Shown here: positions 1 to 33,750 of the stretch, one piece after another
How positions within the stretch are numbered: the stretch's first letter is position 1
Layout: each line of letters starts with the position of its first letter
NCBI GenBank assembly: GCA_947626445.1
Contig: CANQSC010000003.1
Location: 1 to 34,616, forward strand
DNA length: 34,616 nt
DNA from: an uncultured Bacilli bacterium
GTDB lineage: Bacteria; Bacillota_I; Bacilli_A; RF39; UBA660
Direction of reading: 5' to 3'
Notes under the pieces: generated by a model
What the model saw: the letters and a program-made list of their open reading frames with translations, nothing else
Databases searched by the model: none
Told to the model about the DNA's origin: nothing
Translations under genes and position numbers: made by a program

Positions 1-61
1 ATTTATACATAGCCTCCTACTATATATAAATATTAACATAATACCCCCCCCCCTATGTCAA
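1..61 (-). promoter_or_regulatory. Poly-G (G10) spacer promoter plus RBS for a gene starting just outside the left edge; near-copy of 3553-3613
   Basis: Minus strand: TTGACA (61-56), TA, G10 (53-44), TG-T-TAATAT, then AGGAGG. 55/61 identical to 3553-3613 by manual alignment. Confidence 0.75.
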
Positions 62-1770: not shown

Positions 1771-3552
1771 TTAAAAAGCTAGAACGAGACGAAAGCTGTG
1801 ATAACTCGACGATGATCCATAATCCGTATGTAAATCGAAAATACCACTACCAGTTCCAAAGTCAATAATGCCACCACGTTGAACCCATGGACGGGCCGTG
1901 TAAACAATCCATGCTTCATCATTATACCAACTACCTACATTTCTTGATTGAATTAAATATTTCATACTTTGGAATGGGCCCATTTCTTTGGTCGCATCTC
2001 CTAATTTTCCTCTATTATACGACGTGTCACTGGTACTATAATCATATTTATCATAGAATCTTTCATCGGTTGGTAAATCTATTCCTTCTGTTACTTCTAT
2101 AATACTATGATTTACTTCCAATCCATTATCATTACATTCGGGACATGTTAATTTTCCCTTAAATCCTGAATTCCAAACATTATGTCGGCCTGATGATAAT
2201 TTGCCAGTGTGGCCATCTCCAGTGCTGTTGTCATCCATTCCACTCATCATATTTTCCCAAGCTCCCCCACTCATATCATAGATTCCACTATAATTATTTG
2301 TTGTACTGGCTACCACACTTGCTTTATTAAAATAATTGGTATTATAGTCACCATCAGCTCCAGGTGAAGAAACTCTTCCATATTCATTACAAGCTTCTGA
2401 ATTTACACTACATAATTCATTAGTGGTTGTATAGCCAATCGTTGGTTCTTGTCTTGCGGCATAGCCTGTTAAAAAATCATAATTATTATTGATCCTTATT
2501 TCTTGATGGCTTCCATACTTACTATGTTGTAAGTAAGCTACGGCTCCCCATTCACTATTTTTCATCATATGACTATTTAAATTTTGCTCATAATGTCTTC
2601 CTACTGTATAAGCTTTAGCTACTTGAATTTCTCGCCATGAATATACATTTGGCTTGATTATCACTTTGCTTGCTGCTTCTATTGCAGCTTTTTCATCTGT
2701 TGGATTTACTTGAGCAGCTGCAGTACTTCCTGCTCCATCATAACCGGTTTCAAATTTTCCTACCCATAGGCCATTCGTATCAAATGAGGTAAACGCTGGA
2801 TGCGTTAACCATTCTCCTTGTTTGTTTCCATTTTGAGGTTCAATATCTTTATTTTCAAATTCAACATTTATTATTTGTTCTTTATTTGTTTTGGTTGTTA
2901 AGCCATCATAGTTTCCTTCATCAAATATTTGATACCTGTATCTTGGGATCCAAACAAAATAACTTTCAATATCATTTTCTTCGATTGGTTGGTTTTCTCC
3001 TGGGTCTTCTACACCACTTCTTAAGATAACTGCATTTGCCCACTTCTGATTTTTATAATCATACCATTTTTCTTTGGCACTTGCTCTTGTAACATGACCA
3101 TTTTCTTCATTTATTATTATTGGTATTAATTTACTACTTAATACTGGATCTGCTCCATTTAATTCTCGATCGATATATTTATCATTAAAATATAAGGTAC
3201 ATTTGGTTTTACTTTTACTTAAATTCTTTATTAAGGGAGCCCATTCATCTTTATTCCATTCGATACTTGCTCCATTATCACATTCCCCATCGATAAACAC
3301 TAATCCTTCACTATTTTCTTTACTTGGCATTTCTTCTAATAATTCATTTCCTTTATAAAAAGCAAAATAAACATCACTATTACCAAAATAATCTACTTTT
3401 CCATTCATCATAGGAAAACTTACTTCTTCACTAAAACTTGCAAATGTTTTATATAACAAAAATGATATACTTATTAATACAATTAGACTTATACTTATTA
3501 AAATTATTTTTCTTTTCCTCTTATTTTTATCAACATATTTTTCGAGTTTCAT
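1771..3552 (-). CDS. Surface protein paralog 1 (intact): shared N-terminal anchor module plus C-terminal C-type-lectin/FGE-sulfatase-like domain, a DGR-target-like fold
   Basis: Likely start is ATG 3552 (MKLEKY...) after AGGAGG. Contains a TM segment, THPAF, GLWVGKFE, EWGAVAYL, GIYDMSGGAWE, PWVQRGG and terminal SFRLVL. Confidence 0.8.
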   Translation of the reverse strand: MKLEKYVDKNKRKRKIILISISLIVLISISFLLYKTFASFSEEVSFPMMNGKVDYFGNSDVYFAFYKGNELLEEMPSKENSEGLVFIDGECDNGASIEWNKDEWAPLIKNLSKSKTKCTLYFNDKYIDRELNGADPVLSSKLIPIIINEENGHVTRASAKEKWYDYKNQKWANAVILRSGVEDPGENQPIEENDIESYFVWIPRYRYQIFDEGNYDGLTTKTNKEQIINVEFENKDIEPQNGNKQGEWLTHPAFTSFDTNGLWVGKFETGYDGAGSTAAAQVNPTDEKAAIEAASKVIIKPNVYSWREIQVAKAYTVGRHYEQNLNSHMMKNSEWGAVAYLQHSKYGSHQEIRINNNYDFLTGYAARQEPTIGYTTTNELCSVNSEACNEYGRVSSPGADGDYNTNYFNKASVVASTTNNYSGIYDMSGGAWENMMSGMDDNSTGDGHTGKLSSGRHNVWNSGFKGKLTCPECNDNGLEVNHSIIEVTEGIDLPTDERFYDKYDYSTSDTSYNRGKLGDATKEMGPFQSMKYLIQSRNVGSWYNDEAWIVYTARPWVQRGGIIDFGTGSGIFDLHTDYGSSSSYHSFRLVLAF

Positions 3553-3613
3553 ATTTACATATAGCCTCCTACTATATATAAATATTAACACTTAACCCCC
3601 CCCCCTATGTCAA
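3553..3613 (-). promoter_or_regulatory. Poly-G (G10) spacer promoter of paralog 1, predicted phase variable
   Basis: TTGACA 3613-3608, G10 3605-3596, extended -10 TG-T-TAATAT (3587-3582), 20-bp spacer, AGGAGG 3570-3565. Confidence 0.75.
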
Positions 3614-3727
3614 GAAAAGCTTATTACTTTAGACCACTTAGTTATAAATTAAAAAATTAAAGTAATAAGAAATTGTTTAAAATGTGCAAATTATAATGCA
3701 TTTTATTTTACTCATTAATCATTATTT

Positions 3728-5507
3728 TTAAAAAGCTAGAACAAGACGAAAACTGTAGTAGCCAGCCGTACGACCGTCCGCGGCATTGAAATTGAACACG
3801 CCAGCTCCTGTACCATTGGTGTAAGCGCCACCACGTATGACCCATGGATTTCCCAAACCGACAAACCATGCCTCATCGTTATACCAACTTCCTACTGGTC
3901 TTGATTGAGTTAAATATTGCATAGTTTGAAACGGGCCTATTTCTTTGGTTGTATCTCCTAAAAAACCCCTATTATATGTTACACTACTTGTACTATAATC
4001 ATATTTATCATAATATCTTTCATCTGTTGGTAAAGCTATTCCTTCTGTTACTTCGGAAATATCATGATTTACTTCTACTCCTGGATCATTACATCCTAGA
4101 CAGGTTAATTTTCCTATAAATCCAGAATTCCACATATTATGGCGTCCTGCTGACAATTTACCGGTTTTGCCATCGCCAGTACTATTATCATCTATTCCGC
4201 TCATCATATATTCCCAAGCTCCTCCACTCATATCATAAATTCCACTATAATTATTTGTTGTACTTGATATTACACTTGCTTTATTAAAGTAATTGGTATT
4301 ATATGTTCCATCTTCTCCTGCTTTGTTTACTTCTCCATATTCATTGCAAGCATCAAGTGTATTACTACATAATTCATTTGTTCCTGTATAGCCTGTGGTT
4401 GGTTCATGAATTGCTGCATAACCGGTTAGATAATTTGAATTTATTGATTCTCACACTTGTATGACTTCCATATTTACTATGTTGTAAATAGGCTACTGCT
4501 CCCCATTCAGTGTTTTTCATCATATGACTATTTAATCTTTCTTCATAATGCAATCCAACTGTGTATGCTTTTGCTACTTGTATTCCTCGCCATGAATACA
4601 CATTTGGTTTAATTATAACTTTATTAGCTGCTTCTATTGAGGCTCTTTCATCAGCTGGATTTACTTCTGCTGCTTTAGTGCTTCCTGCTCCATCATACCC
4701 TGTTTCAAATTTGCCCACCCATATGCCATTTGTATTAAATGAGGTGAAGGCTGGATGCGTTAACCATTCTCCTTCTTTACTTCCATTTTGAGCTGCTACA
4801 TCTTTATTTTCAAATTCTATATTTATTATTTGTTCTTTATTTGTTTTGGTTGTTAAATCATTATAATTTCCTTCATCAAATATTTCATATCGATATCTTG
4901 GGATCCATACAAAATAACTTTCAATATCATTTTCTTCTATTGGCTCGTTTGCTCCTGGATCAGCTTTTCCATCTTTTAAAATAACTGCATTTGCCCATTG
5001 TTGATTTTCGTAATCATACCATTTTTCTTTTTCATTTGCTCTTGTAACACTTCCATTTTCTTCATTGATTGTTATTGGTATTAGTTTATCACTTAATACT
5101 GGATCTGTTCCTCTTAATATTTTTTCAGTATATCTTTCTTCAAAATACAAGCTACACTCGGTTTTTACACTTTTTAAATTTTTTATTAATGGTGACCATT
5201 CTTCATAATTCCATTCGATACTTGCTCCATTATCACATTCACCATGATCAAATACTAAGTTTTCTTTATTATCTTTCTGTGGCATTTCTTCTGTTAATTC
5301 ATTATTTTTATAAAATACAAAATAAATATCACTATTTCCAAAATAATCTACTTTGCCATTCATTATTGGAAAACTTACTTCTTCACTAAAACTTGCAAAA
5401 GTTTTATATAACAAAAATGATACACTTATTAAAGCTATTAGACTTATACTTATTAAAATTATTTTTCTTTTTTTCTTATTTTTATCTTCATATTTTTCAA
5501 GTTTTAT
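3728..5507 (-). pseudogene. Surface protein paralog 2, disrupted (ATG>ATA start and a frameshift at ~4442); same architecture as paralog 1
   Basis: The in-frame IKLEKYEDK begins with ATA at 5507. ORFs 4404..5414 and 3728..4231 join into a full paralog-1 homolog if 2 bp are restored in ATC AAT A AAT TCA. The downstream frame is open from 4441 to 3728. Confidence 0.8.
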
Positions 5508-5565
5508 ATGTAATCCCTTCTATCTTTATTTATTATGAATTGATAATAGTTTTATTATGTTCTCT

Positions 5566-5615
5566 ATTCTACTGTAGTATATAAATATATTATCTATTCT
5601 AATGTAGAATGTCAA
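5566..5615. promoter_or_regulatory. Promoter of paralog 2 (TTGACA-17-TAATAT, minus strand) overlapped by two 15-bp palindromic operators
   Basis: ATTCTAC-T-GTAGTAT (5566-5580) and ATTCTAA-T-GTAGAAT (5596-5610), 30 bp apart. -35 at 5615-5610, -10 at 5592-5587. Confidence 0.7.
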
Positions 5616-5658: not shown

Positions 5659-5895
5659 ATGAATGAAAGTAAGATTATTTTTAAATTAAAAAAGATTATG
5701 GATGAAAAAAAGATGAGTAAAAATCATCTTTGTAAATTAACTGGTTTAAGATTTGAAACTGTTCAAGGATATTATAAAGGAAATATTTCTAGAGTTGATT
5801 TATATGTTCTATCTTTATTATGTAAAACTCTTGATTGTCGTGTAGAAGATTTAATTGAATATCAAGATACTAAAAAAGAAAAACAATTACAATAA
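5659..5895 (+). CDS. XRE/Cro-C1 family helix-turn-helix transcriptional regulator
   Basis: 78 aa with LKKIMDEKKMSKNHLCKLTGL...LCKTLDCRVEDLIEY; RBS AAGGAAGG. Confidence 0.9.
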   Translation: MNESKIIFKLKKIMDEKKMSKNHLCKLTGLRFETVQGYYKGNISRVDLYVLSLLCKTLDCRVEDLIEYQDTKKEKQLQ

Positions 5896-11144: not shown

Positions 11145-13946
11145 CTAGTTACCTCCATTAATAGTTATGGCATTTATACCAATATTAGTATTTTTTAATT
11201 CATCTAAATCTAGTGAACATATATGTCCCCATGATTCAACTAAAATATGGTTTTCATCTTGTATACCAATTACACTTACTGTATGTCCTTCACCACAAAG
11301 TACAGTTTTATTTAGAGCTGGAATATAAAATTTTACTTTATCAGGAGTTGATTCATTATTACCATTTTTTAAATTATTTAGGGTAGGATTAAGTGTTAAT
11401 AATACACTTCCTTTTTTTAAACCATCAGCTATTTTATTAATAACTGTTTGATTAAATTCTGCGTCAGGAATATTATTATTTACTTGCCATGGGGCGACAG
11501 GAAAATTATTATATATTCCTTTATTAGTAGTATTAATATTTAATCCTTTACTTTTTAAATAATCTTCAATTGTTTGAACATTATTTCCTTCAAAATAAGA
11601 AGTTCCCAATTTTATTTTATATTTAGGAGTATAAACATCTTTGCCATCAACATTTTTAACCATGTTATTTTTATTCATCCAGCAATAAAAATCAGTTAAT
11701 AATAAATCATCATTTGGTAATGTTAAGCCTGTTTGATTTTTTCTTGTTAATGGAAAACCAAATGTTTGTTTAAAAAGGTCAGGATTGTTTTGAAAATAAA
11801 TCATGATAGTATTTATGGTAGCCGCATAATCACAAATACCTCCTGTAATTGAACCATTCATATCTGTAGCTAATTTAATTTTATCTTGTTGTGACATATT
11901 AGGAAAATATGATTTAATTATGTCTAATACCAAATTAGCACGCTCTGGGACTTTCATATCAGCTTCTACAATAGATTGATTTGCCCCATTTCGACCGGCT
12001 GGAAATTGTTCAAAAAAGCTCATATATCCTTTAAGAATAGACGAATTAATTATATCATCAATATTTTCAATAGAAATATTTGCTTCCGTTTTACTACATT
12101 TTTCAATTAAATCTTTTAAATCAAGGTCAGAATTTTTATTTATTTGTTCAATAACTTGATTTAATTGCTCATTATTGATATTTATTTTTTGATTGTTTAT
12201 TACTAATGATAAACCGCCAAGAGCTCCACTATAAGCATTCAAATTACCGGCTACAATTGCTCCCATTAAAAATGATTTAATTGCTTCATCTGTTAATTCA
12301 TCTAAATTTACGGGTTTATTTAAGAGTACAGCATCTATCCCAGCCATTAAATAACTTTGCAAAAATTCTTCGTTTCCTTCTTGGAGCATTCTGACGATAA
12401 AGCTTGTACTTGGATTATCTGCTAATCCTAATACACCACCCATTTTCTCAGTTAATACTTCTGATCCTGCTGATAATAAGCCGTATAATATTGATGTCAT
12501 TGTTGTATGTCCATTTACTAAGGCTTCATGTTTAGAGTTTCCATAGGCAGATGCTCCCATCAAAAGTTGTCCTACTTTAGGCGCTAGTTCTGGAGCTACT
12601 AATGATGCTAGAAAACTTGCCGTTACACTTGGTAACATATTTCCAGTAGACATTCCTACTTGATACACATTGTCTAATATTTTAGTTTGTTTTTGTAAAT
12701 ATTGTAAATAATACGCTATCTTATATTCACTTACTGATAAATTTTCATCATTTATTACGGCATTTTCTAAACCTTTAAAAAACAAATTTATTCCATCACT
12801 TAATCCATCAGTTCCAACATTTAAGGTATTACATATATTCTCTTGTATTTCTCCTTCATCATCTAATGATAATTCTTTTATTTCTTTTTGAGCTAAATTA
12901 TAACCAATTCTTTGATTTAGTTCATCTTGTTTTTTATCTATATATTTATCAGCTGATGCTCTTCCTTCATTTTCAAAAAGATAAGAATAAATTTGAATTT
13001 CTTCTTGAGTCATTACTTTATAATTTTCATACATTTTAGAAAAATCTTGTTGATATACTACAACTTGTCTATTTATTACATCACTTATATCTAATCCTTC
13101 TTTGTTAGCTAGACTTTTAGCATACTCACAAAATAATAAAGGATTATAATTTTCTTGCAATTGATATGCTAAATCTGGTACATCATATATTCTTAGATAT
13201 TGTTCTTGATATTCATTATATTTTTCTTCTAATTTTTCATCACTTAAACTGCCATTTAATAACCATTTAATATATTCTTGACTATTGGTTATATTTTCTT
13301 CTTCCTTGGCTATTTTTAATTTTTGAAGTTCTTGTTTTAAGGCATATTGAGCTGATGATAACATTAAACTGTCGTTTTTTATCTTTTGCATATTTTCTTT
13401 ATATTCATCTTCTGTTTTATCACTATTTGTTAATTTTTTAAAAATTTCATTATAGGTATCTGTATAGGTTCTAATTTTTTCTTGCCACTCTTTATCATTA
13501 TAAAAAGCTTCTACTATATTAGCATCAGTGTACATTTGAGAATAATTTCCTAATAATAAATTTTCATATTCTTGAGGTGTCATTGGTTTATCTCCATTTG
13601 ACATTATCTCGCCATTTTCATACCATATTTTTTCATTTTTTATTGAAAAAGCATCATCATATTGTTTTTGTAATGTTTCATATTCTTTATCCATCTGTTT
13701 TTTTAATTTTGTGATATTTTCAAAATTATCATTATTAGTCTTTATTAATCCATCTATATCTTGTAAATTATCATTATTATTACTATTATCTTCTAAAGAA
13801 AAATTAACAATTTCTACTTCACTAGAATTATAATTTGCGTAATTATTTAAATTTTGATTACTAATATTATCAGAAACATTTGTAACTTCCTCATTGTTAT
13901 TATTAGTATAATCTATATTTATATTTTTTACATCTTTTCTAATCAT
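11145..13946 (-). CDS. Putative T7SS effector: shared leader, helical and hydrophobic middle region, C-terminal papain-like cysteine protease
   Basis: GGICDYAA (Cys), GEGHTVSVIG (His) and VESWG; no Sec signal; located in the T7SS locus. Confidence 0.65.
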   Translation of the reverse strand: MIRKDVKNINIDYTNNNNEEVTNVSDNISNQNLNNYANYNSSEVEIVNFSLEDNSNNNDNLQDIDGLIKTNNDNFENITKLKKQMDKEYETLQKQYDDAFSIKNEKIWYENGEIMSNGDKPMTPQEYENLLLGNYSQMYTDANIVEAFYNDKEWQEKIRTYTDTYNEIFKKLTNSDKTEDEYKENMQKIKNDSLMLSSAQYALKQELQKLKIAKEEENITNSQEYIKWLLNGSLSDEKLEEKYNEYQEQYLRIYDVPDLAYQLQENYNPLLFCEYAKSLANKEGLDISDVINRQVVVYQQDFSKMYENYKVMTQEEIQIYSYLFENEGRASADKYIDKKQDELNQRIGYNLAQKEIKELSLDDEGEIQENICNTLNVGTDGLSDGINLFFKGLENAVINDENLSVSEYKIAYYLQYLQKQTKILDNVYQVGMSTGNMLPSVTASFLASLVAPELAPKVGQLLMGASAYGNSKHEALVNGHTTMTSILYGLLSAGSEVLTEKMGGVLGLADNPSTSFIVRMLQEGNEEFLQSYLMAGIDAVLLNKPVNLDELTDEAIKSFLMGAIVAGNLNAYSGALGGLSLVINNQKININNEQLNQVIEQINKNSDLDLKDLIEKCSKTEANISIENIDDIINSSILKGYMSFFEQFPAGRNGANQSIVEADMKVPERANLVLDIIKSYFPNMSQQDKIKLATDMNGSITGGICDYAATINTIMIYFQNNPDLFKQTFGFPLTRKNQTGLTLPNDDLLLTDFYCWMNKNNMVKNVDGKDVYTPKYKIKLGTSYFEGNNVQTIEDYLKSKGLNINTTNKGIYNNFPVAPWQVNNNIPDAEFNQTVINKIADGLKKGSVLLTLNPTLNNLKNGNNESTPDKVKFYIPALNKTVLCGEGHTVSVIGIQDENHILVESWGHICSLDLDELKNTNIGINAITINGGN

Positions 13947-13954
13947 AAATCCTC

Positions 13955-16393
13955 CTAAGTAAAATATAGAAAATCTCCAACACTTCGTTCGCCAGTTTCA
14001 TCAGTTGGATTATTTATTAATTCTCCATCAAATACTAAGGAAACACTTCCACCTTGATCCATGCTTTTTGCATAAGTACAACCTTTATTATACAAATATT
14101 CTCTTGCTCCAACATTTGTTGTAGAACCTGTTAAAATATAATATTCTCCAGGCTTCGTCATACCAATAACAGTACTATTATAAGCTGTATCATTTTCACT
14201 AGAGGGTTGAGAAATATAATCTTTTTCACCATTCCAAATTAATCTTGAATCTAAACTGGCAAAAGTATAAACCACTCCTTTATCTATCAAATCAGTAGCT
14301 GTTGTTCCAGGACTAGGTGTAAATAATCTACCATCTTTATCTAGACAAATTTCCATGGCTTGGGAAGTACCATCATGCACGATTTTTCCATTTACTATAG
14401 CTATATGATTAGTATTTCTTAAATCTTGCTCGCCATTATCTAAAAAGTTACTACCATTGATCACTAATGTAGCATTTTTTCTTTTAGCTGCACTACTAGG
14501 TTTTTCAAGACCACTAGCATATTTTCCATTAGCTGGCTCTCCTTTTATCTTAGAAGGATCATCAATAACTATATGGGTTAAATAGCAAGGATTGCCATCA
14601 ACTTCGACATCTCTAATTGTAATAAATTCATTTTCATCTATTTTAACTTTAAATGCTTTTTGAATTTCTTCCGCATATTTCACTATAGCATTACCAATAT
14701 TACTATTTTTTAAAATCTTAGATAAATCAATTTTTTTAACCACTTTTCTATTACTCTTAACTGAAGTCGGCTCTGAATTTGAAGAAGAATTGTTTTGAGG
14801 TATTTTTAAAACCTGACCAACATTAATATTATTTGGATCGGTTATATTATTAGCTTTAACTATGTCATCAACACTTAATCCATATTTGGCTGCTATGGCA
14901 CTTAACGTTTGCCCACGTTGAACAGTATAATCCTCAAATGTTGGCTTATTATTAGATTTATTTGTCATAATTAAATTAATAAAATTAAGAATTTTTTCAG
15001 GATTAATATTTATATTTTGTTCTTTTAATTTATTGCTTATTATTTCCTTTAAATTATTAACTACTTTGTTATTTGATTCTTTAAAATCTTGAATTTGTTT
15101 TGCTAAGACGGGAATCATTGATTCCATAGTATTATTTACTTTTTGGCTTACCATTTTTATTTGATTAATCAATTGTTGATAATTAGTTTGAAAATTATTG
15201 AAATTGAATGATTCAATTATATTATTAATATTTTGATAGTTAATGCTTATATTAGATTCTTTTAATTTTTCAGTTATTATTTTTTTTAAATCATAAGCAT
15301 TATTAATATTTTTGTCTTTAATTTCTTGGGCTTGTTTTGCTAAAGTTAGGATAATTGAATCAACTGTATTATTTGCTTTTTGGCTAATATTCTTTATTTG
15401 ATCAACTAATTGTTGAGCTTGATTGACAGGGTTTTCTTCTTCTTTAGTGGTAAGAATTTTATCTACCATTTCTTTTATACTTTTCGAATTAATTTTTATA
15501 TTTTGTTCTTTTAATTTATCATTAATCATTTTTCCTAAATCAATAGCTGTTTGAGAATTTTGATTATTAATATCTTGAATTTGTTTAGTTAGTAATGGAA
15601 TTGCTGATTTTATTGCATCATTTGCTTTTTGGCTTGCTATTTTTATTTGTTCTGCCAATTGTTTTGCTTTAGCTTTTGAATCTGTTTCATTATTTTTGGC
15701 AAGAACTTTATCAACGATAATATTAATACTTTCTGGATCAAAATTGGCATCAATTTCATTTAGCTTATCAATAACTAATTTTTTTAAATCTTCTGCTGTA
15801 CTATTATTTTTATCATTAATATTTTGGATTTGTTTTACTAAAGTTGGAATAATTGAGTCAACCACATCATTTACATTTTGACTAGCCATTTTTAATTGAT
15901 CAGCAATTTGTTTTGATAATTCTTCCTTTTTATCCGTTTTTTCACCTTTAGATGGTATTTTAATAATTTGATCTACTTCAATATAATTTGGATTAGATAT
16001 ATTATTTTCTTTTACTAAATCATCAATAGAAACCCCATACTTTTCGGCAATAATAGTTAAATTATCTCCTTCTTTGACGGTATAAGTTGATGTATCTTCG
16101 GGAAGGTTAGGAATTTTTATTACTTGACCATTTTCAATATAATTTGGATCGGCAATATTATTATAGTCAGCTAATTCTTGATATGTTAAGCCATATTGCT
16201 CAGCAATGGAGGTCAATGTCTCGCCACTTTCGACAACATGCTCGCTATCAAATTCCATTGTTTCTACATTTGAATTTTGATAATCAATTGATACATTAGT
16301 ATCATTATTATTCTTAATACTATCTACATTACCAGATTCTTTTTGTTCATCATAATATATTGATTGCTTACTTACTCCTTTTTTTATTGCCAT
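13955..16393 (-). CDS. LysM x3 protein with four ~80-aa helical repeats and a C-terminal phosphodiester glycosidase (NAGPA-like) domain; putative T7SS substrate
   Basis: LysM motifs HVVESGETLTSIA, YTVKEGDNL and YTVQRGQTLSAIA; VINGSNF, MDQGGS and ERSVGDFLYF. Confidence 0.8.
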   Translation of the reverse strand: MAIKKGVSKQSIYYDEQKESGNVDSIKNNNDTNVSIDYQNSNVETMEFDSEHVVESGETLTSIAEQYGLTYQELADYNNIADPNYIENGQVIKIPNLPEDTSTYTVKEGDNLTIIAEKYGVSIDDLVKENNISNPNYIEVDQIIKIPSKGEKTDKKEELSKQIADQLKMASQNVNDVVDSIIPTLVKQIQNINDKNNSTAEDLKKLVIDKLNEIDANFDPESINIIVDKVLAKNNETDSKAKAKQLAEQIKIASQKANDAIKSAIPLLTKQIQDINNQNSQTAIDLGKMINDKLKEQNIKINSKSIKEMVDKILTTKEEENPVNQAQQLVDQIKNISQKANNTVDSIILTLAKQAQEIKDKNINNAYDLKKIITEKLKESNISINYQNINNIIESFNFNNFQTNYQQLINQIKMVSQKVNNTMESMIPVLAKQIQDFKESNNKVVNNLKEIISNKLKEQNININPEKILNFINLIMTNKSNNKPTFEDYTVQRGQTLSAIAAKYGLSVDDIVKANNITDPNNINVGQVLKIPQNNSSSNSEPTSVKSNRKVVKKIDLSKILKNSNIGNAIVKYAEEIQKAFKVKIDENEFITIRDVEVDGNPCYLTHIVIDDPSKIKGEPANGKYASGLEKPSSAAKRKNATLVINGSNFLDNGEQDLRNTNHIAIVNGKIVHDGTSQAMEICLDKDGRLFTPSPGTTATDLIDKGVVYTFASLDSRLIWNGEKDYISQPSSENDTAYNSTVIGMTKPGEYYILTGSTTNVGAREYLYNKGCTYAKSMDQGGSVSLVFDGELINNPTDETGERSVGDFLYFT

Positions 16394-16527
16394 GCGTACT
16401 TTCCTTTCGTTTTAATTAACATTATTTTCATTTTTCTTTATTAGTTTTAAAACATACTTATTTTTTTTCTTTTTTTCTATTAATTATTGTTAGATTAATC
16501 TCTTATATGCAAATATGCTAATATAAA

Positions 16528-16767
16528 TCATTTATTACCTTTTAAATAATCAATTAATTTCATTATTATTTTAAACAATTCTTGATATTCTTTTTCTTCA
16601 ACTGGACAGATATTTTCATTTATAATTTTACCTACAAAAACACTCTCAAAGTCATTAGGAGATATAATATAAAATACATATTCAAAATTATTATATTTAA
16701 TATTAACTAACGGATATATTTCTTTTGTTTCATCATTAAGACTAACAATTATTTTTTCATTGTCCAT
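16528..16767 (-). CDS. Small hypothetical protein (DUF1292-like)
   Basis: 79 aa, overlaps the stop of the upstream gene, acidic beta/alpha pattern ending PVEEKEYQEL. Confidence 0.55.
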   Translation of the reverse strand: MDNEKIIVSLNDETKEIYPLVNIKYNNFEYVFYIISPNDFESVFVGKIINENICPVEEKEYQELFKIIMKLIDYLKGNK

Positions 16768-17339
16768 ACTAATTTATCCCCTTCTAACATTTTTTTTGCT
16801 TCTTTCTCAGCAATTAAATCTTTAGTTTTATAATGCTTTTCTCCATCCCAATCTTTAATATATTTTAGAATATCTTCTTTACTAATTGATTCATTATTTT
16901 TTAATAATTTATCCTCATATAAATTATAGAATACACTGCTTTCTTTAAATAAACATAGATTAGTCCATTCTCCTCCAACAATTACATTACCTGTTAAAAT
17001 ATCTTGAGCTAAATATAGATCATTAGTTAAATAAACAGTTCCATCAGTTAATTGCTTTATATATAATTTATCTAATCCTATCTCTTTATCATCAATAATA
17101 ATCTGTTCATTATCATATATTTTAGCAAATTCTTCATCTATTTCTTCATCAGGTATTTCTTCCATAATATTTTGGCATAATATTTCATAACTTTCAGTAT
17201 AGCATAAATCTTCTTCAATCGTATTAGCTTTAACATGATTTATTAATAAACTAGATATTAAGATACTATTAGTAAGCATTAAAGTAGATCCTTTAATTAT
17301 TTTATTTATTTTCATTTTTTTAGTATTTATTATTTTCAT
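16749..17339 (-). CDS. Secreted acidic hypothetical protein (possible extracytoplasmic immunity or accessory protein)
   Basis: Basic N-terminus, hydrophobic stretch, VKA cleavage-like site, RBS GAGGAG. Confidence 0.6.
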   Translation of the reverse strand: MKIINTKKMKINKIIKGSTLMLTNSILISSLLINHVKANTIEEDLCYTESYEILCQNIMEEIPDEEIDEEFAKIYDNEQIIIDDKEIGLDKLYIKQLTDGTVYLTNDLYLAQDILTGNVIVGGEWTNLCLFKESSVFYNLYEDKLLKNNESISKEDILKYIKDWDGEKHYKTKDLIAEKEAKKMLEGDKLVWTMKK

Positions 17340-17359
17340 ATATTTTTCTCCTCTTATTA

Positions 17360-19006
17360 TTAATTACCATTTAATATATACTTCATATAATCATATAAAG
17401 TTTGAAATTCTCCATAATTAATTTTAATTTGAGTTAAGCGTTCAGGATATATGTAATAGTTATCTATACATCTAGCAAACCATTCATTAGGTGCATCTTT
17501 TAACGCTATTGACAGTAATTCACTATTATTTTGATTAAATATTTGTTTGTAAACTACTTCTTTCCAATCTTCTCTTTCAGATATTCTACCTTTTGCTGCA
17601 TCATAAGCATGTCCCAATTCATGAATCAATATTTTTTGAGCTGTAAGGCGCTTCTTTTCATCATTAGATACTATAGTATTACCATTTATTACTACTTTTT
17701 TACCATTTAATGTTATACCAGAATATCCTCCATTTTTAAGATATAGAATTGGAATTTCTTTATCTAAGCTAGAATTTTTTATAGTTTGAATAAAATCATA
17801 ATCAAGATTTTTAGTATTATTAATATAATCAGTTACATACTGTTGAGCTTTTTTAATATATTCTTCTTTATCTTCACCTTCCAAAGGTACAACTTTAACC
17901 TTTTTTTTATCATTTTCATCTACTTCAAATTTTGCTAATGGAATTTTAAAGTTAAAATCGCTATTTGGATAAGAAATATATAGCACATCGCCTACATACA
18001 TTACTTCACCATGATTAGGTATGGTAATTGTTTGAGGCTGAGCAATGATACTACAATTGAGATCATATTCAGTATTAGAGCTACTTTTAAAGAAGGCAAA
18101 TCGTAAAATGTCTAAATATTTTTCATAATCTAAATTATTATTTTTTAAAACATCTTTTATTATTTGCATAATATCACGGGCTTGATTAAGATTTTGTTGA
18201 TGCGTTTCTTTAATTTTGCTAGCAATTACAGGAATTAAATTCGTTATTTTTTCATTGGCATTTTTAAAAAAATTTTTTATTTCATCTGCTAATTGTTCAG
18301 GAGTATCATTGCCCTTTGACAACATTTGAATTATTTTATTTATATCTGTTGGATCAAGACTCATATTTGACTTGGAGAAGGCTTCTTTTATAATATTTTT
18401 GATGACTTCACTTGTTTGATTACTATTTTGCGCAACTTCTTGGGCTTTAGATCCTAACATAGTTGCGGCTTTATTTGATGCTTCAGTTATTTTTTTACAT
18501 AATTTTTTTATTTCATCTGCTACTTTTTTTTCTTCAGAATTACTATTTTGATTTTCTTCTTTAGGAGGAATTTTTATTACTTGACCGATTTCAATATAAT
18601 TAGGATCGGCAATATTATTATAATCAGCTAATTCTTGATAGGTAAAACCATAAGCATTAGCTATTTTTGTTAAATTATCTCCCCCTTTAACGGTATAAGA
18701 TGATGTGTCTTCGGGAAGATCAGGAATTTTTATTACTTGACCAGTTTCAATGTAATTGGGATCGGGTATATCATTATAATCAGCTAAATCTTGATACGTT
18801 AAACCATATTTTTCAGCAATGGAGGTCAATGTTTCGCCACCTTCGACAACATGCTCACTATCAAAGTCCATTGTTTCTACATTTGAATCTTGATAGTCAA
18901 TTGATATATCAGAATCATTATTATTCTGAATACTATCTACATTACCAGATTTTTTTTGCTCATCATAATATATTGATTGACTACTTACTCCTTTTCTTAT
19001 TGCCAT
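17360..19006 (-). CDS. LysM x2 protein with two helical repeats and a C-terminal HExxH zinc metallopeptidase (lethal-factor/PPEP-like); putative T7SS substrate
   Basis: LysM motifs; ILIHELGHAYD followed by NEWFAR; RBS GGAGG. Confidence 0.78.
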   Translation of the reverse strand: MAIRKGVSSQSIYYDEQKKSGNVDSIQNNNDSDISIDYQDSNVETMDFDSEHVVEGGETLTSIAEKYGLTYQDLADYNDIPDPNYIETGQVIKIPDLPEDTSSYTVKGGDNLTKIANAYGFTYQELADYNNIADPNYIEIGQVIKIPPKEENQNSNSEEKKVADEIKKLCKKITEASNKAATMLGSKAQEVAQNSNQTSEVIKNIIKEAFSKSNMSLDPTDINKIIQMLSKGNDTPEQLADEIKNFFKNANEKITNLIPVIASKIKETHQQNLNQARDIMQIIKDVLKNNNLDYEKYLDILRFAFFKSSSNTEYDLNCSIIAQPQTITIPNHGEVMYVGDVLYISYPNSDFNFKIPLAKFEVDENDKKKVKVVPLEGEDKEEYIKKAQQYVTDYINNTKNLDYDFIQTIKNSSLDKEIPILYLKNGGYSGITLNGKKVVINGNTIVSNDEKKRLTAQKILIHELGHAYDAAKGRISEREDWKEVVYKQIFNQNNSELLSIALKDAPNEWFARCIDNYYIYPERLTQIKINYGEFQTLYDYMKYILNGN

Positions 19007-19016
19007 ATTGAGCCTC

Positions 19017-19262
19017 CTAATTTATTTTTTGATTAATACTTGGTAAAACAATATTATTAATTTTTTTATAATTGTTTTCATTAATATTTAAATATTTTTT
19101 TAATGTATCTTTTTCAATAATGGTATTATTTAATTTAACAGTATCATTCATTTCATTTATTAGTTTTTTATGAATAATGCTTAATTCTCCTAAATTATGA
19201 TTTAATTTAATAACTAATTGTTGTAAAATTTGATACTTTTTTTTAGTTGCTTCATCTATCAT
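19017..19262 (-). CDS. Small helical protein, WXG100-like accessory candidate
   Basis: 81 aa of amphipathic helices, translationally coupled within the T7SS cluster. Confidence 0.55.
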   Translation of the reverse strand: MIDEATKKKYQILQQLVIKLNHNLGELSIIHKKLINEMNDTVKLNNTIIEKDTLKKYLNINENNYKKINNIVLPSINQKIN

Positions 19263-19552
19263 AAATCACCTATATTTTCAAGTATACTTTCTGTTTCTTT
19301 AACTTGTTTTTGATATTTACTTATATTTTTTTCTAAGACAATAACATTATTTTGAAAATTACGATTTATAACCTGTAAATTTTTAATTAAATTTATTTCA
19401 AAATTATTTATTTTATTTACATTTGTAGATTTATAAATGCTATTTATCTGACTATTTTTATTTAATGATTCAATATTTAGTAAACATTCTTTTTGATAAA
19501 ATTTCATTTTATTTAAATTTAACTTAAGTAATGCTTCATTTAATATTGCCAT
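19259..19552 (-). CDS. WXG100-like small helical protein (central YxS)
   Basis: 97 aa, helix-turn-helix pattern with central IYKS, T7SS context. Confidence 0.55.
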   Translation of the reverse strand: MAILNEALLKLNLNKMKFYQKECLLNIESLNKNSQINSIYKSTNVNKINNFEINLIKNLQVINRNFQNNVIVLEKNISKYQKQVKETESILENIGDL

Positions 19553-19567
19553 TTTATCTTATCCTCT

Positions 19568-20128
19568 CTATAAGTAATTTATATATTCTAATTCTTTAAT
19601 AATTCGATTTTCATATTTAGATACAAGACTATTTATTTCAATTTCTTTTCTTTCAATATTTTTTATGGTATTTTTAACGTTATAATATATCTTTTTTATA
19701 CTTTGTTGATTATTTACTAAATCAGTTTTAATATTTAAAATTATTTCTTTTTCGGTTGGGCAAAAACTTAAATCCATATTGTTAATTAAATTTATAGAAT
19801 CAGCAATTTGATTTAAATATTTTTCAAAGATATTAAATAAAGAATTTTTGTTATCTTTTAAATAATAAATTTGTTTAGCAATTGGTTCATATTTAAAAAC
19901 TATACTTTTAAATATTTCATTTAATTCTTTTAAATCTAAAATAACTTTGTTTGATTCATTTTTTTGATAATTAATTTGATCTAAATATAATTTTGAATGT
20001 TCGTCTTGCCAGCAATCCATAGCTTGATTTAAGGCATTATAAAAATTCAAATAATTTAATTCATAAGAATCAATTATTTGTTTAATTTGTAAACTTTGTT
20101 TTTTTAATAGTTCTACGTCAATTCTCAT
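19568..20128 (-). CDS. WXG100-like protein (central WQD) with helical extension
   Basis: MRIDVELL start and CWQDEHS at the hairpin position. Confidence 0.6.
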   Translation of the reverse strand: MRIDVELLKKQSLQIKQIIDSYELNYLNFYNALNQAMDCWQDEHSKLYLDQINYQKNESNKVILDLKELNEIFKSIVFKYEPIAKQIYYLKDNKNSLFNIFEKYLNQIADSINLINNMDLSFCPTEKEIILNIKTDLVNNQQSIKKIYYNVKNTIKNIERKEIEINSLVSKYENRIIKELEYINYL

Positions 20129-20143
20129 AATTGCCTCATATTC

Positions 20144-20183
20144 TCTTAAATAAGTAAAATAAATTTATTTTACTTATTTAAGA
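20144..20183. repeat. Perfect 40-bp palindrome
   Basis: TCTTAAATAAGTAAAATAAA|TTTATTTTACTTATTTAAGA. Confidence 0.9.
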
Positions 20184-20202
20184 AAAAACAAATACGTTTT
20201 TT

Positions 20203-20847
20203 CTAATCATTTCCTGCAAATGCTTGAGCAATTTTACCTTCAGTATTTTTATAATTGGTAACAGTAGTATTTATTGCACTTTTTAATTGAGAACTACAAC
20301 CAGTAAAAGTTGTATTAATATTGTTCTTAATCGTATTTAATGATGCTAGTAAATTAGCTGCTGATTCGCCACCAATAAAACCACAAGTTTGAACAGCAGT
20401 TACAGCACGACTTAAGGCACCTTGAGCTGCACCATTAATAATTTGTAAACTATTAGTAGTTGTATTAGCAGCAGATAAGTCAATACCTCTTACCCCATTA
20501 ATGTTTTCTTTAATTACAGAAGTATTAAGTTCTTTACGTGTTGAGGTATAAGATGGTGCTGAAAAAGTAGCGCCAGTTTGATTAGCCCAATTTTGGCCAG
20601 CTGTTTTCATAGAATTAACAACACTTGTAAAAATTTTTTCAGCATCTTTTGTTAATTTATCCATTGCTGGTTTAACTGAGTCATTAAAATATTTTTGTGC
20701 ATTGCTGCATGCCCATAAATTTCCCATTTTGTCAACAAATTGTGATTGAAACTTTCCACATAAAATATCCATTGTGTCATTAGCTGCTGTAATAAAATTA
20801 TTCATTGATGTTCTAACAATTGCAGGATCAAAACCCATTAAAGCCAT
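20203..20847 (-). CDS. Tandem (double) WXG100-like protein, probable major T7SS substrate
   Basis: Start MALMGFDP after AAAGGAG. First half has WAC, second half has FIG; C-terminal YKNTE matches YxxxD/E. Confidence 0.65.
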   Translation of the reverse strand: MALMGFDPAIVRTSMNNFITAANDTMDILCGKFQSQFVDKMGNLWACSNAQKYFNDSVKPAMDKLTKDAEKIFTSVVNSMKTAGQNWANQTGATFSAPSYTSTRKELNTSVIKENINGVRGIDLSAANTTTNSLQIINGAAQGALSRAVTAVQTCGFIGGESAANLLASLNTIKNNINTTFTGCSSQLKSAINTTVTNYKNTEGKIAQAFAGND

Positions 20848-20891
20848 TTTTAGCTCTCCTTTCACTTGATAGTTTACCCTATCACAATTTA

Positions 20892-20951
20892 ATTATAATA
20901 AACTTTCTTTATTTTGCCAATTAAAGATAATTTTTTTGACGTTTTTTGACA
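20892..20951 (-). promoter_or_regulatory. Internal sigma-A promoter for the WXG100/effector genes with an upstream tandem direct repeat
   Basis: TTGGCA (20920-20915)-17-TATAAT (20897-20892). TGTCAAA and CGTCAAA at 20951-20945 and 20941-20935. Confidence 0.6.
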
Positions 20952-20952
20952 C

Positions 20953-21213
20953 TTATTTAGTAAATATAAATAATTCCGTACCATTTCTTATATCCGTATA
21001 AATAACTACTTCATTATTGTGATAAACTCGACAATTATCCTTATTTAATAAAATGTATTCTTCATTATTTGCAAATATAGTCCCCGTTAAATCTATTATT
21101 GATTTAATTAACATTTTTTTAATTTTCCAAATTACTTCATTTACTGGTAAAAATAAATCAAAAGTTTCATTTAAAGTTGGAACAGTTAATTTTATTAAAA
21201 CTTTATTTTCCAA
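20953..21213 (-). CDS. esaB: EsaB/YukD-like ubiquitin-fold T7SS protein
   Basis: 86 aa with FDLFLP...IRNGTELFI, directly downstream of essC. Confidence 0.75.
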   Translation of the reverse strand: MENKVLIKLTVPTLNETFDLFLPVNEVIWKIKKMLIKSIIDLTGTIFANNEEYILLNKDNCRVYHNNEVVIYTDIRNGTELFIFTK

Positions 21214-21215
21214 AA

Positions 21216-24200
21216 TTATTCCTCCTCTTTAGATATAAAATCAATTAATTTACATAAAATTGGGGTACTCTCTGATATAATATATCCCATTTGATTATTA
21301 TAATCTTTAGTCATATCTCTAGTAATATTTGATAAATGAAATAAAGTTTGATCCGCAATTCCTTTACCTACCCATAAGCCGTCATTTAAACTAAAAGTGC
21401 TAGTAAACCATTGCTCATAAGCATAATTTTTAACTTTGTTAGCACCATCTATAATAAGAGGATAAATTTTTTCATAAGTTTTTAATAAATTAAAGAAATT
21501 GGTTAATTTATCAGAATCAACTTTACTTATAAATTTATCAAGATTATAGATAATAATTATACCTTTTAAAGTATTTTTTTGATTAATTAAATTATTCATA
21601 TATTCTATAATACTATCCATTAATTGATCAAAATTTTCTGTGTAATAATTAGGATAAGTAATTTTATTTAAACTTAAGTCTTTACTAGAATCAATAATAA
21701 TTAATTGAGTATTTTTAAGATGACTTATTTCTTCTATTAAACTTAACGTAAAATTTTTAAGATTACCAATTTTATTAGATGTTATAATATTACCTAAATT
21801 AGTAGAAAAATCTAAAGAAAGAATTTCTAAATCATTTTTACTTATAGCAATTGGTAAAGATGTGACATCACTAAGATGTTCTTCAATATCTTTCAAACGA
21901 ATTATATTTGGTAAAGTCGGAATTTTACGAGCTTTGTTTTTATTTAAATTTTGTTGTTCTATGACAAAATCGTTAATTTCTTTAGTCATTTTAGAATCTA
22001 ATGGGAAAGGTGTGGCTGTTTGAAACTCATATACTTCATCAGTTCTAAATAAGCCTCGGCCAAAAATATTTTTAGGAATAATTTTAGTATGAACATCAAA
22101 TATAGAACGATAATCATTATCATCTTTTAATTTAAAGGCTATAATATTTGGACAATTTTGAGATATTTTAGTATGAACAGAATTAACTTGGTTAGCTGTT
22201 ATAATAAAGATTATTCCATAATGTTCTGAATCTCTTATTAATTCTGGTAATTCATCATATAAATCTTGATTAGCTTCATAAATACTATCATAATTATTCA
22301 TAATAATAGCTTTAATTGGTAACTTCTTTTCGTTTTTTTGATTATATAATTCAAAATCACCATTATAGTCTGATAAAATCTTTTTACGTTTTTTGATATC
22401 TTCTTTAATTAACTTCCATAAATTATTATATTTTTCGTCTTCAAGGGCTAAGACAAGACCACCAACATGAGGTAATTTAGAATATTTGACTAGTGATTCA
22501 GAACCATAATCAATTATATAAAAATTAATATCATCAGCTTGATAATTTTTAGCAGTTTCATAAATAATTGTATTTAATAAATTTTCATTTTCGCTACCAT
22601 CGTTTCCATAAATAATAGTATTGCCATTTTTTAAATAAGAATAGGTAACTAAATTTTGTTGTTGATATTGTGGAGCATCATACTCACCTATTATAATTTT
22701 TATTTCATCGGTTTTTTGATAATGATATTTATTTTCTAGAGAAGACACTAAAACATCAGATGGCAAACTTTCTAACCATAATCTTTTAGCTTTCATTCCT
22801 AAATTTTGCGATACCGAAATGATATTTTTTAAGATGGCTGTAATTTGTTCACCTTCAGCTTGAACATGATTTTGACTTGAAGCTTGAATGTTTTTAATAA
22901 AAGTGCCACTTTCATCGATAAAATTGATACTTCTATCTACTTGTTTAATAAGTTTTTCACTAGGATAATAATTAGCTCCAGCATAGGCAGATTGGCCTAA
23001 AACAAAATATTCGTCAAAACCAACTTGTAAATAAAATCTTCCGGTTTGCTTTATGGCCGCTGCTTCAGGTCGTTTTAGCATTTCTCTACTATCTTGTTCA
23101 TCACTTACTTTTAAACAAACCCGAAAACGAGTATTAGACCAAATTTGATCATTGACAACACCACTTGGTTTTTGAGTTGCTAAAATAAGATGAACCCCTA
23201 AACTACGACCAATACGCGCGACACTAATTAAATCATCCATAAAGTCAGGTTGATTAACTTTTAATTCAGCAAATTCATCGCATATGATAAATAAATGAGG
23301 AATTGGTGTATCTAATCGTCCTTCATTATAATATCTTTGATATTTATATATATCTATAGTACTTTCACTTAATTTATCTCTTGCTTCATTAAAAATAGTT
23401 TGTCTTCTTTTAATTTCACTATTAATACTTACTAATGCTCGGTCAATTTCTGACTTATCTAAATTGGTTATTGTTCCCGCTAAATGAGGTAAAACTAAAT
23501 TAGTAGTTTTATTTTCAAAGGCATAGGCTAAGCCCCCACCTTTATAGTCTATTAAAATAAATGCTACTTCTTCAGGACTATAATTAATTGCCAAAGATAA
23601 AATATAAGTAATAATAAATTCTGATTTACCTGAACCAGTAGTACCAGCTATTAAACCATGAGGTCCATGAAATTTTTCATGTAAATCCAAATATAATAAA
23701 TCACCATGTTCATCTACACCAACTTCAGCTTTTAAACTTAATGTTGCATCATTTCTCTGCCATCTATTTAAAATATTTAATTGCTCTACTTTACCTACTT
23801 TTTCCATCTCTAAAAAATTAATACTATTTGGTAATTGACTTAAATTATTTTCAAATTCAATAGGAATATTAGCTAAAGCTTTAACGATGTTACTCATGTT
23901 AAGGTTATAATGAATTTCATCAGTAAAACTACTTTTTTCTTGATTTTCATAAGCATTAATTAAAATCTCTGAGGTGCGGTCACCAATGGTAATAAAATTA
24001 TTACATTTACTTGGTAATTTACTCAATTTATTTTCAATAAACACAATACTAAAACCAAGATTTACATCTAATTCAGTTAAATCTTTAACAAAATCAAAAC
24101 GTTTAAATTCGTCTATTTCATCCATGATGATAAAATAATAAGGCTTAGGAGTATAATTTTTATTACTACTTTTAGCGATCCTTGAATTAAGTTCACTTTC

Positions 24201-25757: not shown

Positions 25758-25839
25758 ATCAATCACCTTAATTATTCTCTATTAAATATTTTAACAAATA
25801 AAAAAGATAAAATAAAGAAGAATTATGTTGGTTTGATGG

Positions 25840-29800: not shown

Positions 29801-29829
29801 ATTATAGCAAACTAAAAAGAAATTGTCTA
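29801..29829 (-). promoter_or_regulatory. mnmE promoter
   Basis: TAGACA-17-TATAAT with extended TG. Confidence 0.65.
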
Positions 29830-30093: not shown

Positions 30094-31505
30094 CTAACTC
30101 GCAAGCTCAGTTTTATATGGCGTCCCTTTTTCACCGTTACCGTCTATTATTTTTACTGACGATGATAGATATGCGACTGGCTGAACCCCGTAAGCATTGC
30201 CCGCGCGGTAGTCGCTGACATAGCCAGACGAAAGCACAAGGAACACATCGGAAGCATCAGTAGAATCCGGCGATGGTGTCATTGTCCATGAATAACCACT
30301 ACTTGGTTTTAACCAATCATTATCTTTACAACTTCCACTATTATATTTATTCATACTTTTTCCTAAACATGTTTCTCTTACTTCTCCTCCTACTGCATAC
30401 CCAAAGTCACTTGCATACATTAATCCTATATTTCCTTCCCATGTTGTGGTTCTTTCTACTTCATCATTACAATCTGTTCCTCTATAACTTGAACATAGTT
30501 CCTTTCCATTATGACTTCCTCTTTCTGCTTCATATGTTGCTTTTGCTGTCCATTCTGAATCATTATAAGTTGCAAATGTTCCTGTATTCCATCTTACTTT
30601 TGCTATTTTGTTCTTTGCTTCTTCACTTATTCCACTACTTTATTTACTTCATTTTTACCGCTATAACAACTTCCACTTCCTCTGTTCCAATACAAACTTC
30701 CTCCGATTGTTGGTGTTCCACTATATACGGTATTGGGATTTAATAATTTCATTACATCTGCCTCGCTCCACTCATTTACTCCATAACCATTATTTATTCC
30801 TGATGCACTACTATCCCAACTATAATTTCCTATACTTTCTTCTCTTATTATTTTTACCAAACTTTCTTGTTGTCCTCCATTATCTATATTGGTTATGTTA
30901 TTCATGACTCCTATGATTCGCCATAATATTGGATTACCATTACTATCTCTATCTCCTATATCTATATAGTTATTTACTGTTTCATTTGCTCCTACATATC
31001 TTATATTTGCGTCACTTGTATCATCAACCCATAAATTTGTTGTATCTAAATTGGCATTAGTTTTGATACACTCTGATGCTCCTGCTCCGGATTGTCCACA
31101 TTTTACAACTGCTTCATCATAAGTAGGAACATATTCTTCAAAATGCAAACTACATTTAGTCTTTACTTTGTTTAAACCTTTTACTAATGGAGCCCATTCT
31201 TCACTATTCCATTCGACACTTGCTCCATTATCACATTCAGCGTAGTCAAATACTAAATTTTCTTCATTATCTTTCTGAGGCATTTCTTCTAATTCTTTAT
31301 CACCATGATAAAAAGCAAAATAAATATCACTATTACCAAAGTAATCTACTTTTCCATTCATAATAGGAAACTCTGCACTTTCCGAAAAGGACGCAAAGGT
31401 TTTGTATAGAAGTAATGATACACTTACTAATACTATTACACTTATACTTATTAAAATAATTTTTCTTTTTTTCTTGCTCTTATCCTCATATTTTTCTAGC
31501 TTCAT
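30094..31505 (-). pseudogene. Surface protein paralog 3, frameshifted at ~30640: shared N-terminal module plus a different (DUF6273-like) C-terminal domain
   Basis: The first ~125 aa match paralogs 1 and 2, followed by LWRIIG and VKII. After the frame change come SSGISEEAKNKIAKVRWNTG...IGLMYASD...WTMTP...GVQPVAYL...GNGEKGTPY. Confidence 0.8.
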
Positions 31506-31528: not shown

Positions 31529-31560
31529 ATTATAGCAACTAACCCCCCCCCCTAAGTCAA
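31529..31560 (-). promoter_or_regulatory. Poly-G (G10) spacer promoter of paralog 3, predicted phase variable
   Basis: TTGACT 31560-31555, G10 31552-31543, TG-C-TATAAT (31534-31529), 20-bp spacer. Confidence 0.78.
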
Positions 31561-33720: not shown

Positions 33721-33750
33721 ATTATAATATTAAGATTGGGAAAAAGTCAA
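33721..33750 (-). promoter_or_regulatory. rpmH promoter
   Basis: TTGACT-18-TATAAT. Confidence 0.6.

Follow-up and report, generated by a model that had tools for sequence, protein, structure and literature searches.

Poly-G promoter spacers of variable length in front of dispersed lectin-fold genes in a genus of uncultured gut Bacilli: a candidate slipped-strand switch

Introduction

Three promoters in the stretch of DNA analysed here (34,616 nucleotides, called the window throughout) carry exactly ten G between their -35 and -10 boxes, which raises the question whether the run is a fixed part of the promoter or a spacer of variable length by which the genes behind it are switched. A first-pass annotation had proposed that the 20-bp spacer set by ten G is an OFF state and that a gene is turned on by the loss of 2-3 G; as an alternative it had considered a fixed protein-binding or structural element relying on an extended -10. 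Judged by their anatomy and by comparison with related genomes, the three sites probably belong to a set of sigmaA-type promoters, spread through the genus, in which a length-variable poly-G spacer acts as a slipped-strand switch.

Results

Three G10 promoters in the window

The following features were assigned to the promoter region at 3582-3613 and to the two similar sites (positions are those of the window):

3582..3613, minus strand: promoter, sigmaA-type, with a spacer of 20 bp and consensus box matches in the sequence
3608-3613, minus strand: -35 box TTGACA, followed by TA, the G10 tract, 8 nt ending TGT, and the -10 box TAATAT at 3582-3587
3596..3605, minus strand: G10 tract, predicted slippage switch
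3565..3570, minus strand: Shine-Dalgarno sequence AGGAGG, assigned from the sequence
3623..3637, minus strand: upstream motif GTGGT(C/T)TAAA(A/G)TAAT, found before 14 of the 28 genomic TTGAC-G sites (hand count)
30..61, minus strand: second G10 promoter, with G10 at 44-53; its gene passes the contig end
31529..31560, minus strand: third G10 promoter, with G10 at 31543-31552, between jag and mnmE

At all three sites, all on the minus strand, the layout was read as TTGAC(A/T)-TA-G10-5 nt-TGN-(TAATAT/TAATAT/TATAAT) with a 20-bp spacer, in agreement with the first-pass annotation, and these promoters hold the only G or C runs of six or more in the window. The spacers of 17-18 bp that had been described for other promoters of the window were found at four of them, namely 17 bp at 29829 (mnmE), 18 bp at 33750, 17 bp at 20920 and 17 bp at 5615 (paralog 2). 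The leader of the promoter at 30-61 is identical to other family copies. Because the region 5' of the promoter at 3613 folds no better than shuffled sequences (z -0.63), no insulating terminator is claimed. The ATG nearest to the Shine-Dalgarno sequence lies at 3558-3560 and is directly followed by TAA, the family start being at 3552; at 3552-3570 and in similar leaders, the ATG favoured by the Shine-Dalgarno sequence opens a start-stop or a 9-codon out-of-frame reading frame overlapping the family start, which could lower translation.

The genes behind the promoters

The genes of the family in the window, together with a neighbouring regulator-like gene, are:

1771..3552, minus strand: intact 593-aa paralog with a basic N-terminus, one predicted membrane helix and a CLec-fold C-terminal part
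3728..5615, minus strand: paralog 2, with a 17-bp promoter without G-run at 5587-5615 and a frameshift near 4440
5659..5895, plus strand: Cro/C1-type HTH gene (PF13443), divergent from paralog 2
30094..31505, minus strand: family member of a second C-terminal class, following the third promoter and carrying a frameshift near 30630

The structure model of the 593-aa product (pLDDT 80.5, N-terminal helix) had as its best Foldseek match the variable protein TaqVP of a diversity-generating retroelement (DGR), with an E value of 3.7e-6 and a TM score of 0.45 by target, and of 8000 candidates scored, 7933 were relatives. The family is predicted, from the model, to consist of membrane-anchored CLec-fold surface proteins. 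None of the family proteins had a Pfam match above cut-off; an FGE-sulfatase assignment, which came from unnamed clusters in an Atlas search (score 0.86, 16% of members), was a weak lead only and was set aside. The paralogs are under purifying selection (dN/dS ~0.31 among nine genes).

Paralog 2 has no ATG at the family start position, and the HTH gene divergent from it is a possible repressor. In three family copies of the source genome without G-run (C21, C56, C62), a TATAAC-N-GTTATA palindrome lies over the promoter spacer, possibly as a repressor site. Elsewhere in the window, the minus strand from 11145 to 25766 encodes a 1516-aa EssC/FtsK-like ATPase, small WXG100-like ORFs and two LysM-repeat proteins; by its translations, this cluster looks like a type VII secretion locus.

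G-runs in the source genome and the genus

G-runs were counted in the source genome (G000; 1.17 Mb, 26% GC, 82% complete), which has 179 G5, 6 G6, 2 G7, 3 G8, 2 G9, 23 G10 and 1 G11. The 23 exact G10 stand against an expectation of 0.002 from base composition or 0.025 by extrapolation from shorter runs, so that the first-pass annotation was right to call G10 exceptional in such AT-rich DNA. TTGAC precedes the run by at most 4 nt in 28 of the 31 runs of seven or more, with the G always on the coding strand of the gene; C-runs within 4 nt after TTGAC numbered zero in this genome. By hand reading, 22 of these 28 sites have a -10 box, 17 at 20 bp and 5 at 19 bp, and the remaining 6 are interrupted by inserted DNA. 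TG before the -10 box is present at all three sites of the window, as had been noted, and at 15 of the 22 intact genomic copies; as a general feature of these promoters it did not hold up. Promoter-like TTGAC(A/T) sites of the same genome had a spacer peak at 17 bp without a G-run (55 sites) and peaks at 20 bp (16) and 19 bp (4) with one.

A strict promoter pattern matched 9 of 24 genomes of the same genus and 0 of 16 genomes outside it. Exact-length patterns, run on 47 genus genomes, gave 372 G10 sites (in 37 genomes) and 76 G9 sites, at least 45 sites of G11 or longer (up to G17) and at least 27 distinct sites of G7-8, the last two counts being lower bounds because the patterns demanded a trailing base. 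The 27 G7-8 sites comprise 10 element junctions, 4 interrupted tracts, 4 apparently unrelated sites and 9 intact promoters, 8 of which have spacers of 16-18 bp. Between clades the flanks compensate one another and the run (3+10+7, 2+10+8, 1+10+9 and 1+11+8), each sum being 20 bp. A similar layout, with spacers of about 16-20 bp, was seen in species-genome records labelled Clostridia, Campylobacter, Treponema and others, which were not counted and may overlap the genus set.

Some tracts stand before other genes. Interrupted G-tract promoters were found ahead of apparent sugar-transferase (surface polysaccharide) operons in G019:C7 and G049:C6 (L234, L243) and ahead of an apparent ABC transporter (L235), and a G10 promoter in G000:C46 lies ahead of an unrelated, apparently wall-anchored protein.

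Variation of tract length

The length of the G-run varies between copies and between lineages with flanks unchanged. Orthologous promoters of G055 and G060 have G9 and G10, respectively, with the remaining promoter and leader identical; a gapped comparison (117 sites) gave G11 in G044 against G10 in G043 (one of three pairs), and an ungapped comparison of orthologues gave no pairs. The run is thus not fixed at ten across strains, orthologues differing by one G and copies with G9, with G11 or more and with G7-8 being present.

Variation within a sample was compared on assembled contigs, not reads, from four runs of one rabbit-gut sample, from which the genome may itself have come. The tract of G000:C23, G9 as assembled, has one additional G in contigs of all four runs; in the best such contig about 170 upstream letters are identical and only 11 letters extend past the tract. 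For the window tracts at 44-53 and 3596-3605, the sole length variant listed is a single-base deletion in one contig; its depth is 3 of 59, and either a paralog or an error may account for it. Contigs of this one sample thus suggest switching within the population at G-runs. A full MutS is encoded in 44 of 46 relatives, so switching is possibly slow.

Tracts of G8/G9 mostly gain and tracts of G10/G11 mostly lose a base in Campylobacter jejuni, the genomic mode being G9/G10, as given in the excerpt of PMC3401435. The equilibrium computed from these rates is 49% G9 and 28% G10 (rates from the excerpt of PMC3401435), a distribution of similar shape, and the length spread found here is tighter and one base longer than they predict. 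In meningococci, tracts of G7-G10 are described as switching far more slowly (excerpt of PMC4085013). A fixed protein-binding or structural element with an extended -10, the alternative of the first-pass annotation, was not supported by the comparison: the length varies, many copies lack the extended -10, and in Campylobacter slippage bias yields a mode of G9/G10, as far as the excerpt of PMC3401435 goes.

Spacer length and the predicted ON state

Tracts with a substitution inside the run are expected to slip little and were used as locked alleles, in a test that is small, hand-classified and drawn from related genomes. Where the tract is interrupted and the spacer measures at least 20 bp, the family gene is broken or lost at 7 of 11 sites (G000:C9, G002:C3, G014:C33, G016:C115, G022:C93, G048:C24 and G051:C76); the unbroken genes are two complete ones at 20 bp (G007:C87 and G050:C50) and two whose reading frames are still open where the stretch ends. 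With an interrupted tract and a spacer of 19 bp or less, 1 of 18 genes is broken, nine of the 18 sites coming from G058. Fisher's test on this contrast gave p 0.0014, and 0.028 without G058, relatedness inflating the significance. Left out of the count were 16 sites with fewer than about 300 codons of contig, 3 sites before non-family operons and 2 sites still holding G10 or more. Among the genes behind pure tracts, 5 of 65 are broken (hand tally), one being that at 30094-31505 of the window, and behind 16-18 bp promoters all 7 complete genes are intact.

Since genes often decay behind locked spacers of at least 20 bp and rarely behind those of 19 bp or less, the 20-bp state is likely OFF. The pattern points to 19 bp as the length at which expression would begin, so that the loss of a single G may be enough. 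The threshold between 19 and 20 bp is blurred because G058 has 19-bp spacer classes, many of its G10 promoters being natively 19 bp. The slippage switch with G10 at 20 bp as the probable OFF state therefore stands from the earlier proposal, while the loss of 2-3 G is perhaps unneeded, because genes behind 19-bp locked promoters stay intact.

A run in the coding sequence was found in sister species. Five of the nine family loci fetched from G013 and G045 (L309, L311, L313, L317, L318) carry G9-11 within the first codons, and neither genome has a match to the promoter pattern; the loci of G019, which bring the total to 12, have no intragenic G-run. All five runs are, as assembled, out of frame from the nearest start by one base, one locus having an alternative in-frame start. 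Poly-G at this place would mean translational instead of transcriptional switching in G013 and G045. The slippage switch with its predicted OFF state at G10 is thus favoured by the spread of lengths, the differences between orthologues, the decay of genes whose locked spacers measure at least 20 bp and the run placed in a reading frame in sister species.

A spacer of 19-20 bp could conversely be the working geometry, used through a MerR-like activator, an alternative sigma factor or an A-form-like G-run, with all other lengths being damage. The retention of 19-20 bp across clades would fit such a reading, as would the upstream motif conserved before half of the TTGAC-G sites and a divergent 379-aa sigma70-family protein (G000:C28:8947-10086) encoded besides SigA and sporulation-type sigma factors. 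It would not account for genes that decay behind tracts locked at 20 bp or more, for intact genes behind 16-18 bp copies or for the equivalent run inside reading frames. MerR-type promoters have a dyad operator within the spacer, and the spacer here, G10 with variable AT-rich flanks, has neither dyad nor palindrome. MerR_1 (PF13411) had matches in 25 of 47 genus genomes and none in G000 or in nine others rich in tracts (G002, G005, G008, G011, G047, G055, G056, G057 and G059), genomes that are incomplete. Taken together, we regard the working-geometry reading as unlikely.

Mobile elements at the G-run

A part of the poly-G tracts is joined to integrated DNA. The conjugative element at G000:C23:5720-15532 (L142), which encodes a large serine recombinase, has its end at a G7 to which the -10 half of a promoter is joined; the recombinase (Resolvase, Recombinase and Zn ribbon domains, with a LysM-like match) adjoins VirD4-like and sortase genes. 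The five closest recombinases of 22 match rows (55-100% identity, counting the query) stop 45-60 nt short of a G-run in every case; a family gene comes next on the contig in three, and an enzyme identical to that of C23 precedes a different paralog in G007. The left ends read TTGAC-G6-12 followed by element DNA, with inverted arms of 8-15 bp matching the right ends; left and right ends lie on different contigs, and no excision joint was present among the listed variants. More distant recombinases end elsewhere, some within family coding sequence; one distant clade (L187, L192, L202) ends inside an apparent DYGYA-coding stretch of the lectin-fold family. C5 methylase genes were seen at several left ends of the element family, and a tandem insertion in G051:C36.

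A second element type replaces one half of the promoter at three left and three right junctions in the source genome. It has long inverted ends with a short palindrome inside; the joint lies 4 nt after the G-run, and the 6-bp sequences at the junctions are not identical (contig ends G000:C8, C29, C45, C83 and C105; L128, L227). The body of this element was not found, and the pattern for its right end returned mostly chance hits, in numbers close to a reversed control, so that only the rows of G000 and G011 are informative.

That the G-run is primarily a recombination site or the footprint of mobile elements, its promoter position being incidental, was weighed on these junctions and is still less probable than a fixed working geometry. 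The position of the closest serine recombinases just before a G-run, the inverted arms on their matching left ends and the junctions of the second element type speak for it. Against it, more than 400 intact copies retain both boxes and the compensated spacing and lead into genes; the right element end in G002:C74 brings a TTGACA of its own ahead of the G-run, which would fit the restoring of a host promoter; and the intragenic tracts would be left unexplained. A sequencing or assembly artefact has next to no probability and is already largely refuted, for although homopolymer lengths are error-prone and many assemblies may share methods, the runs lie at one defined place between conserved boxes in 37 of 47 genomes and on the coding strand only, naturally interrupted alleles exist, and runs coincide with element junctions.

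Link to a diversity-generating retroelement

The contig stretch G000:C59:1-2347 (L274) holds a complete DGR cassette with variable repeat (VR), template repeat (TR), MSL, avd and reverse transcriptase (RT), identified by RVT_1, bAvd (E 3e-22), a MutS_I-like MSL and a non-coding AAY-rich repeat; the RT has a GxxxSQ-type motif, which we take to be that of DGR-type RTs. The VR in cis differs from the TR at 16 of 30 A and at 1 of 77 other positions. Eighteen 3' ends elsewhere in the source genome match the TR, six of them on genes with intact G-tract promoters. Two genes behind G10 promoters, on C58 (differences at 20/35 A and 1/95 others) and on C110 (18/37 A and 9/102 others, with a copy of the downstream signal), look by this pattern like recent DGR targets. 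In the 3' ends on C58, C67 and C78, nearly all differences from the TR fall on A, yet the sequence found after the cis VR is missing there.

In the window, one feature was assigned by comparison with the same TR:

1778..1910, minus strand: diverged variable-repeat-like 3' end, with differences from the G000:C59 TR at 21/35 A and 30/98 others

The enrichment at A (p 0.004) lies amid much drift, and the genes on C58 and C110 fit the target pattern better. The cis VR is followed by a homing signal (IMH and hairpin) of which the gene at 1771-3552 has no copy; this gene looks like an old, released DGR target. For the 3' end of paralog 2 the differences from the TR are 17/35 A and 11/98 others. No TR was found for the paralogs of the second C-terminal class. 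The RTs on C13 and C14, considered as further DGR candidates, were rejected as group II intron-like; that at G000:C13:1-1180 lies directly upstream of a family paralog.

Related RTs were found in 15 of 46 relatives. Where complete, the gene preceding the cassette stands behind a G-tract promoter in G011, G055 and G060 and lacks one in G049 and G052; a TR-VR pair was not detected on the stretches from G011, G055 and G060, and the RT of G011 is broken. In these three (L293, L294, L303), the G-tract gene stands almost directly before the accessory genes and the RT.

Discussion

In the mechanism proposed here, G10 (20 bp) would be OFF, G9 (19 bp) would permit some expression and G7-8 (17-18 bp) full expression. 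Each promoter would drive one membrane-anchored lectin-fold protein among 20-60 dispersed paralogs, and a slippage bias that leaves most tracts at G10 would let a cell show few paralogs while the population samples the repertoire. The DGR would supply, or have supplied, the differing binding tips, and integrative elements would use the abundant tract as a landing site.

A wider reading, offered tentatively as one possibility, is a two-layer, antibody-like display in a gut commensal, with tips written by the DGR, archived copies behind poly-G promoters and conjugative elements that use the run as attB. Dozens of diversified copies would be archived round the chromosome, the slippage equilibrium would leave each promoter off, and every cell would show a small random subset; the conjugative elements would silence a copy, keep it switchable through a -35 box that they bring along, or set its tract length anew when they excise.

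Promoter-spacer switching by poly-G is already known. In tp0126 of Treponema pallidum and porA of Neisseria meningitidis, poly-G between -35 and -10 sets the spacing with an optimum of 17 bp, at which the tp0126 promoter works best, and at tpr paralogs of Treponema G8 or fewer is permissive (excerpt of PMC7864442). The likeness lies in poly-G within promoters of surface-protein genes; as far as the excerpt of PMC7864442 describes those systems, the present one differs in its 20-60 dispersed paralogs, its modal spacer 2-3 bp over the optimum, its host among uncultured low-GC gut Bacilli, its CLec-fold genes and its DGR link. By analogy, the switch would work like tp0126, porA and, across the family, the vlp genes of Mycoplasma hyorhinis, a membership that rests on anatomy and length variation. 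The vlp genes sit in one cluster. They share with the family described here a homopolymer promoter for each surface paralog, switched on and off by indels (excerpt of PMC10502178), and differ in that the tract here is poly-G instead of poly-A and the copies are dispersed and far more numerous.

C. jejuni resembles the genus in its low-GC genome, its dearth of G6-G8 and its mode of G9/G10, and the intragenic version of its tracts has a counterpart in G013 and G045; its tracts are mostly intragenic and in unrelated genes, those described here mostly in promoters of one family (excerpt of PMC3401435). The genus also differs in having MutS. For the DGR of Treponema, seven non-adjacent targets have been described, and MSL accessory genes are known (excerpt of PMC5758913). 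The cassette found here shares TR, MSL, avd and RT, a C-terminal CLec-type VR, A-specific differences and non-adjacent target-like genes; it differs in that many target-like genes stand behind poly-G promoters and in that most remote copies lack the post-VR sequence of the cis target and are partly diverged (compared with the excerpt of PMC5758913).

Searches of an open-access library, on the lineage together with phase variation, on DGR together with phase-variable promoters and on recombinases at poly-G promoters, listed no description of such a system and no serine integrase family targeting a poly-G promoter core. The novel points are the number of loci, the lineage of the host, the link to a DGR and the role of the tract as an integration core.

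Promoter-spacer phase variation would thereby be extended to a large lineage of uncultured gut Bacilli with 20-60 loci per genome. The lineage offers natural experiments, in locked alleles and in promoter versus in-frame versions of the tract, and its approximately 500 copies trace a slippage equilibrium in a MutS-bearing genus. With a DGR-derived lectin repertoire coupled to poly-G promoters, surface binding proteins would be randomised in their sequence as well as in their expression.
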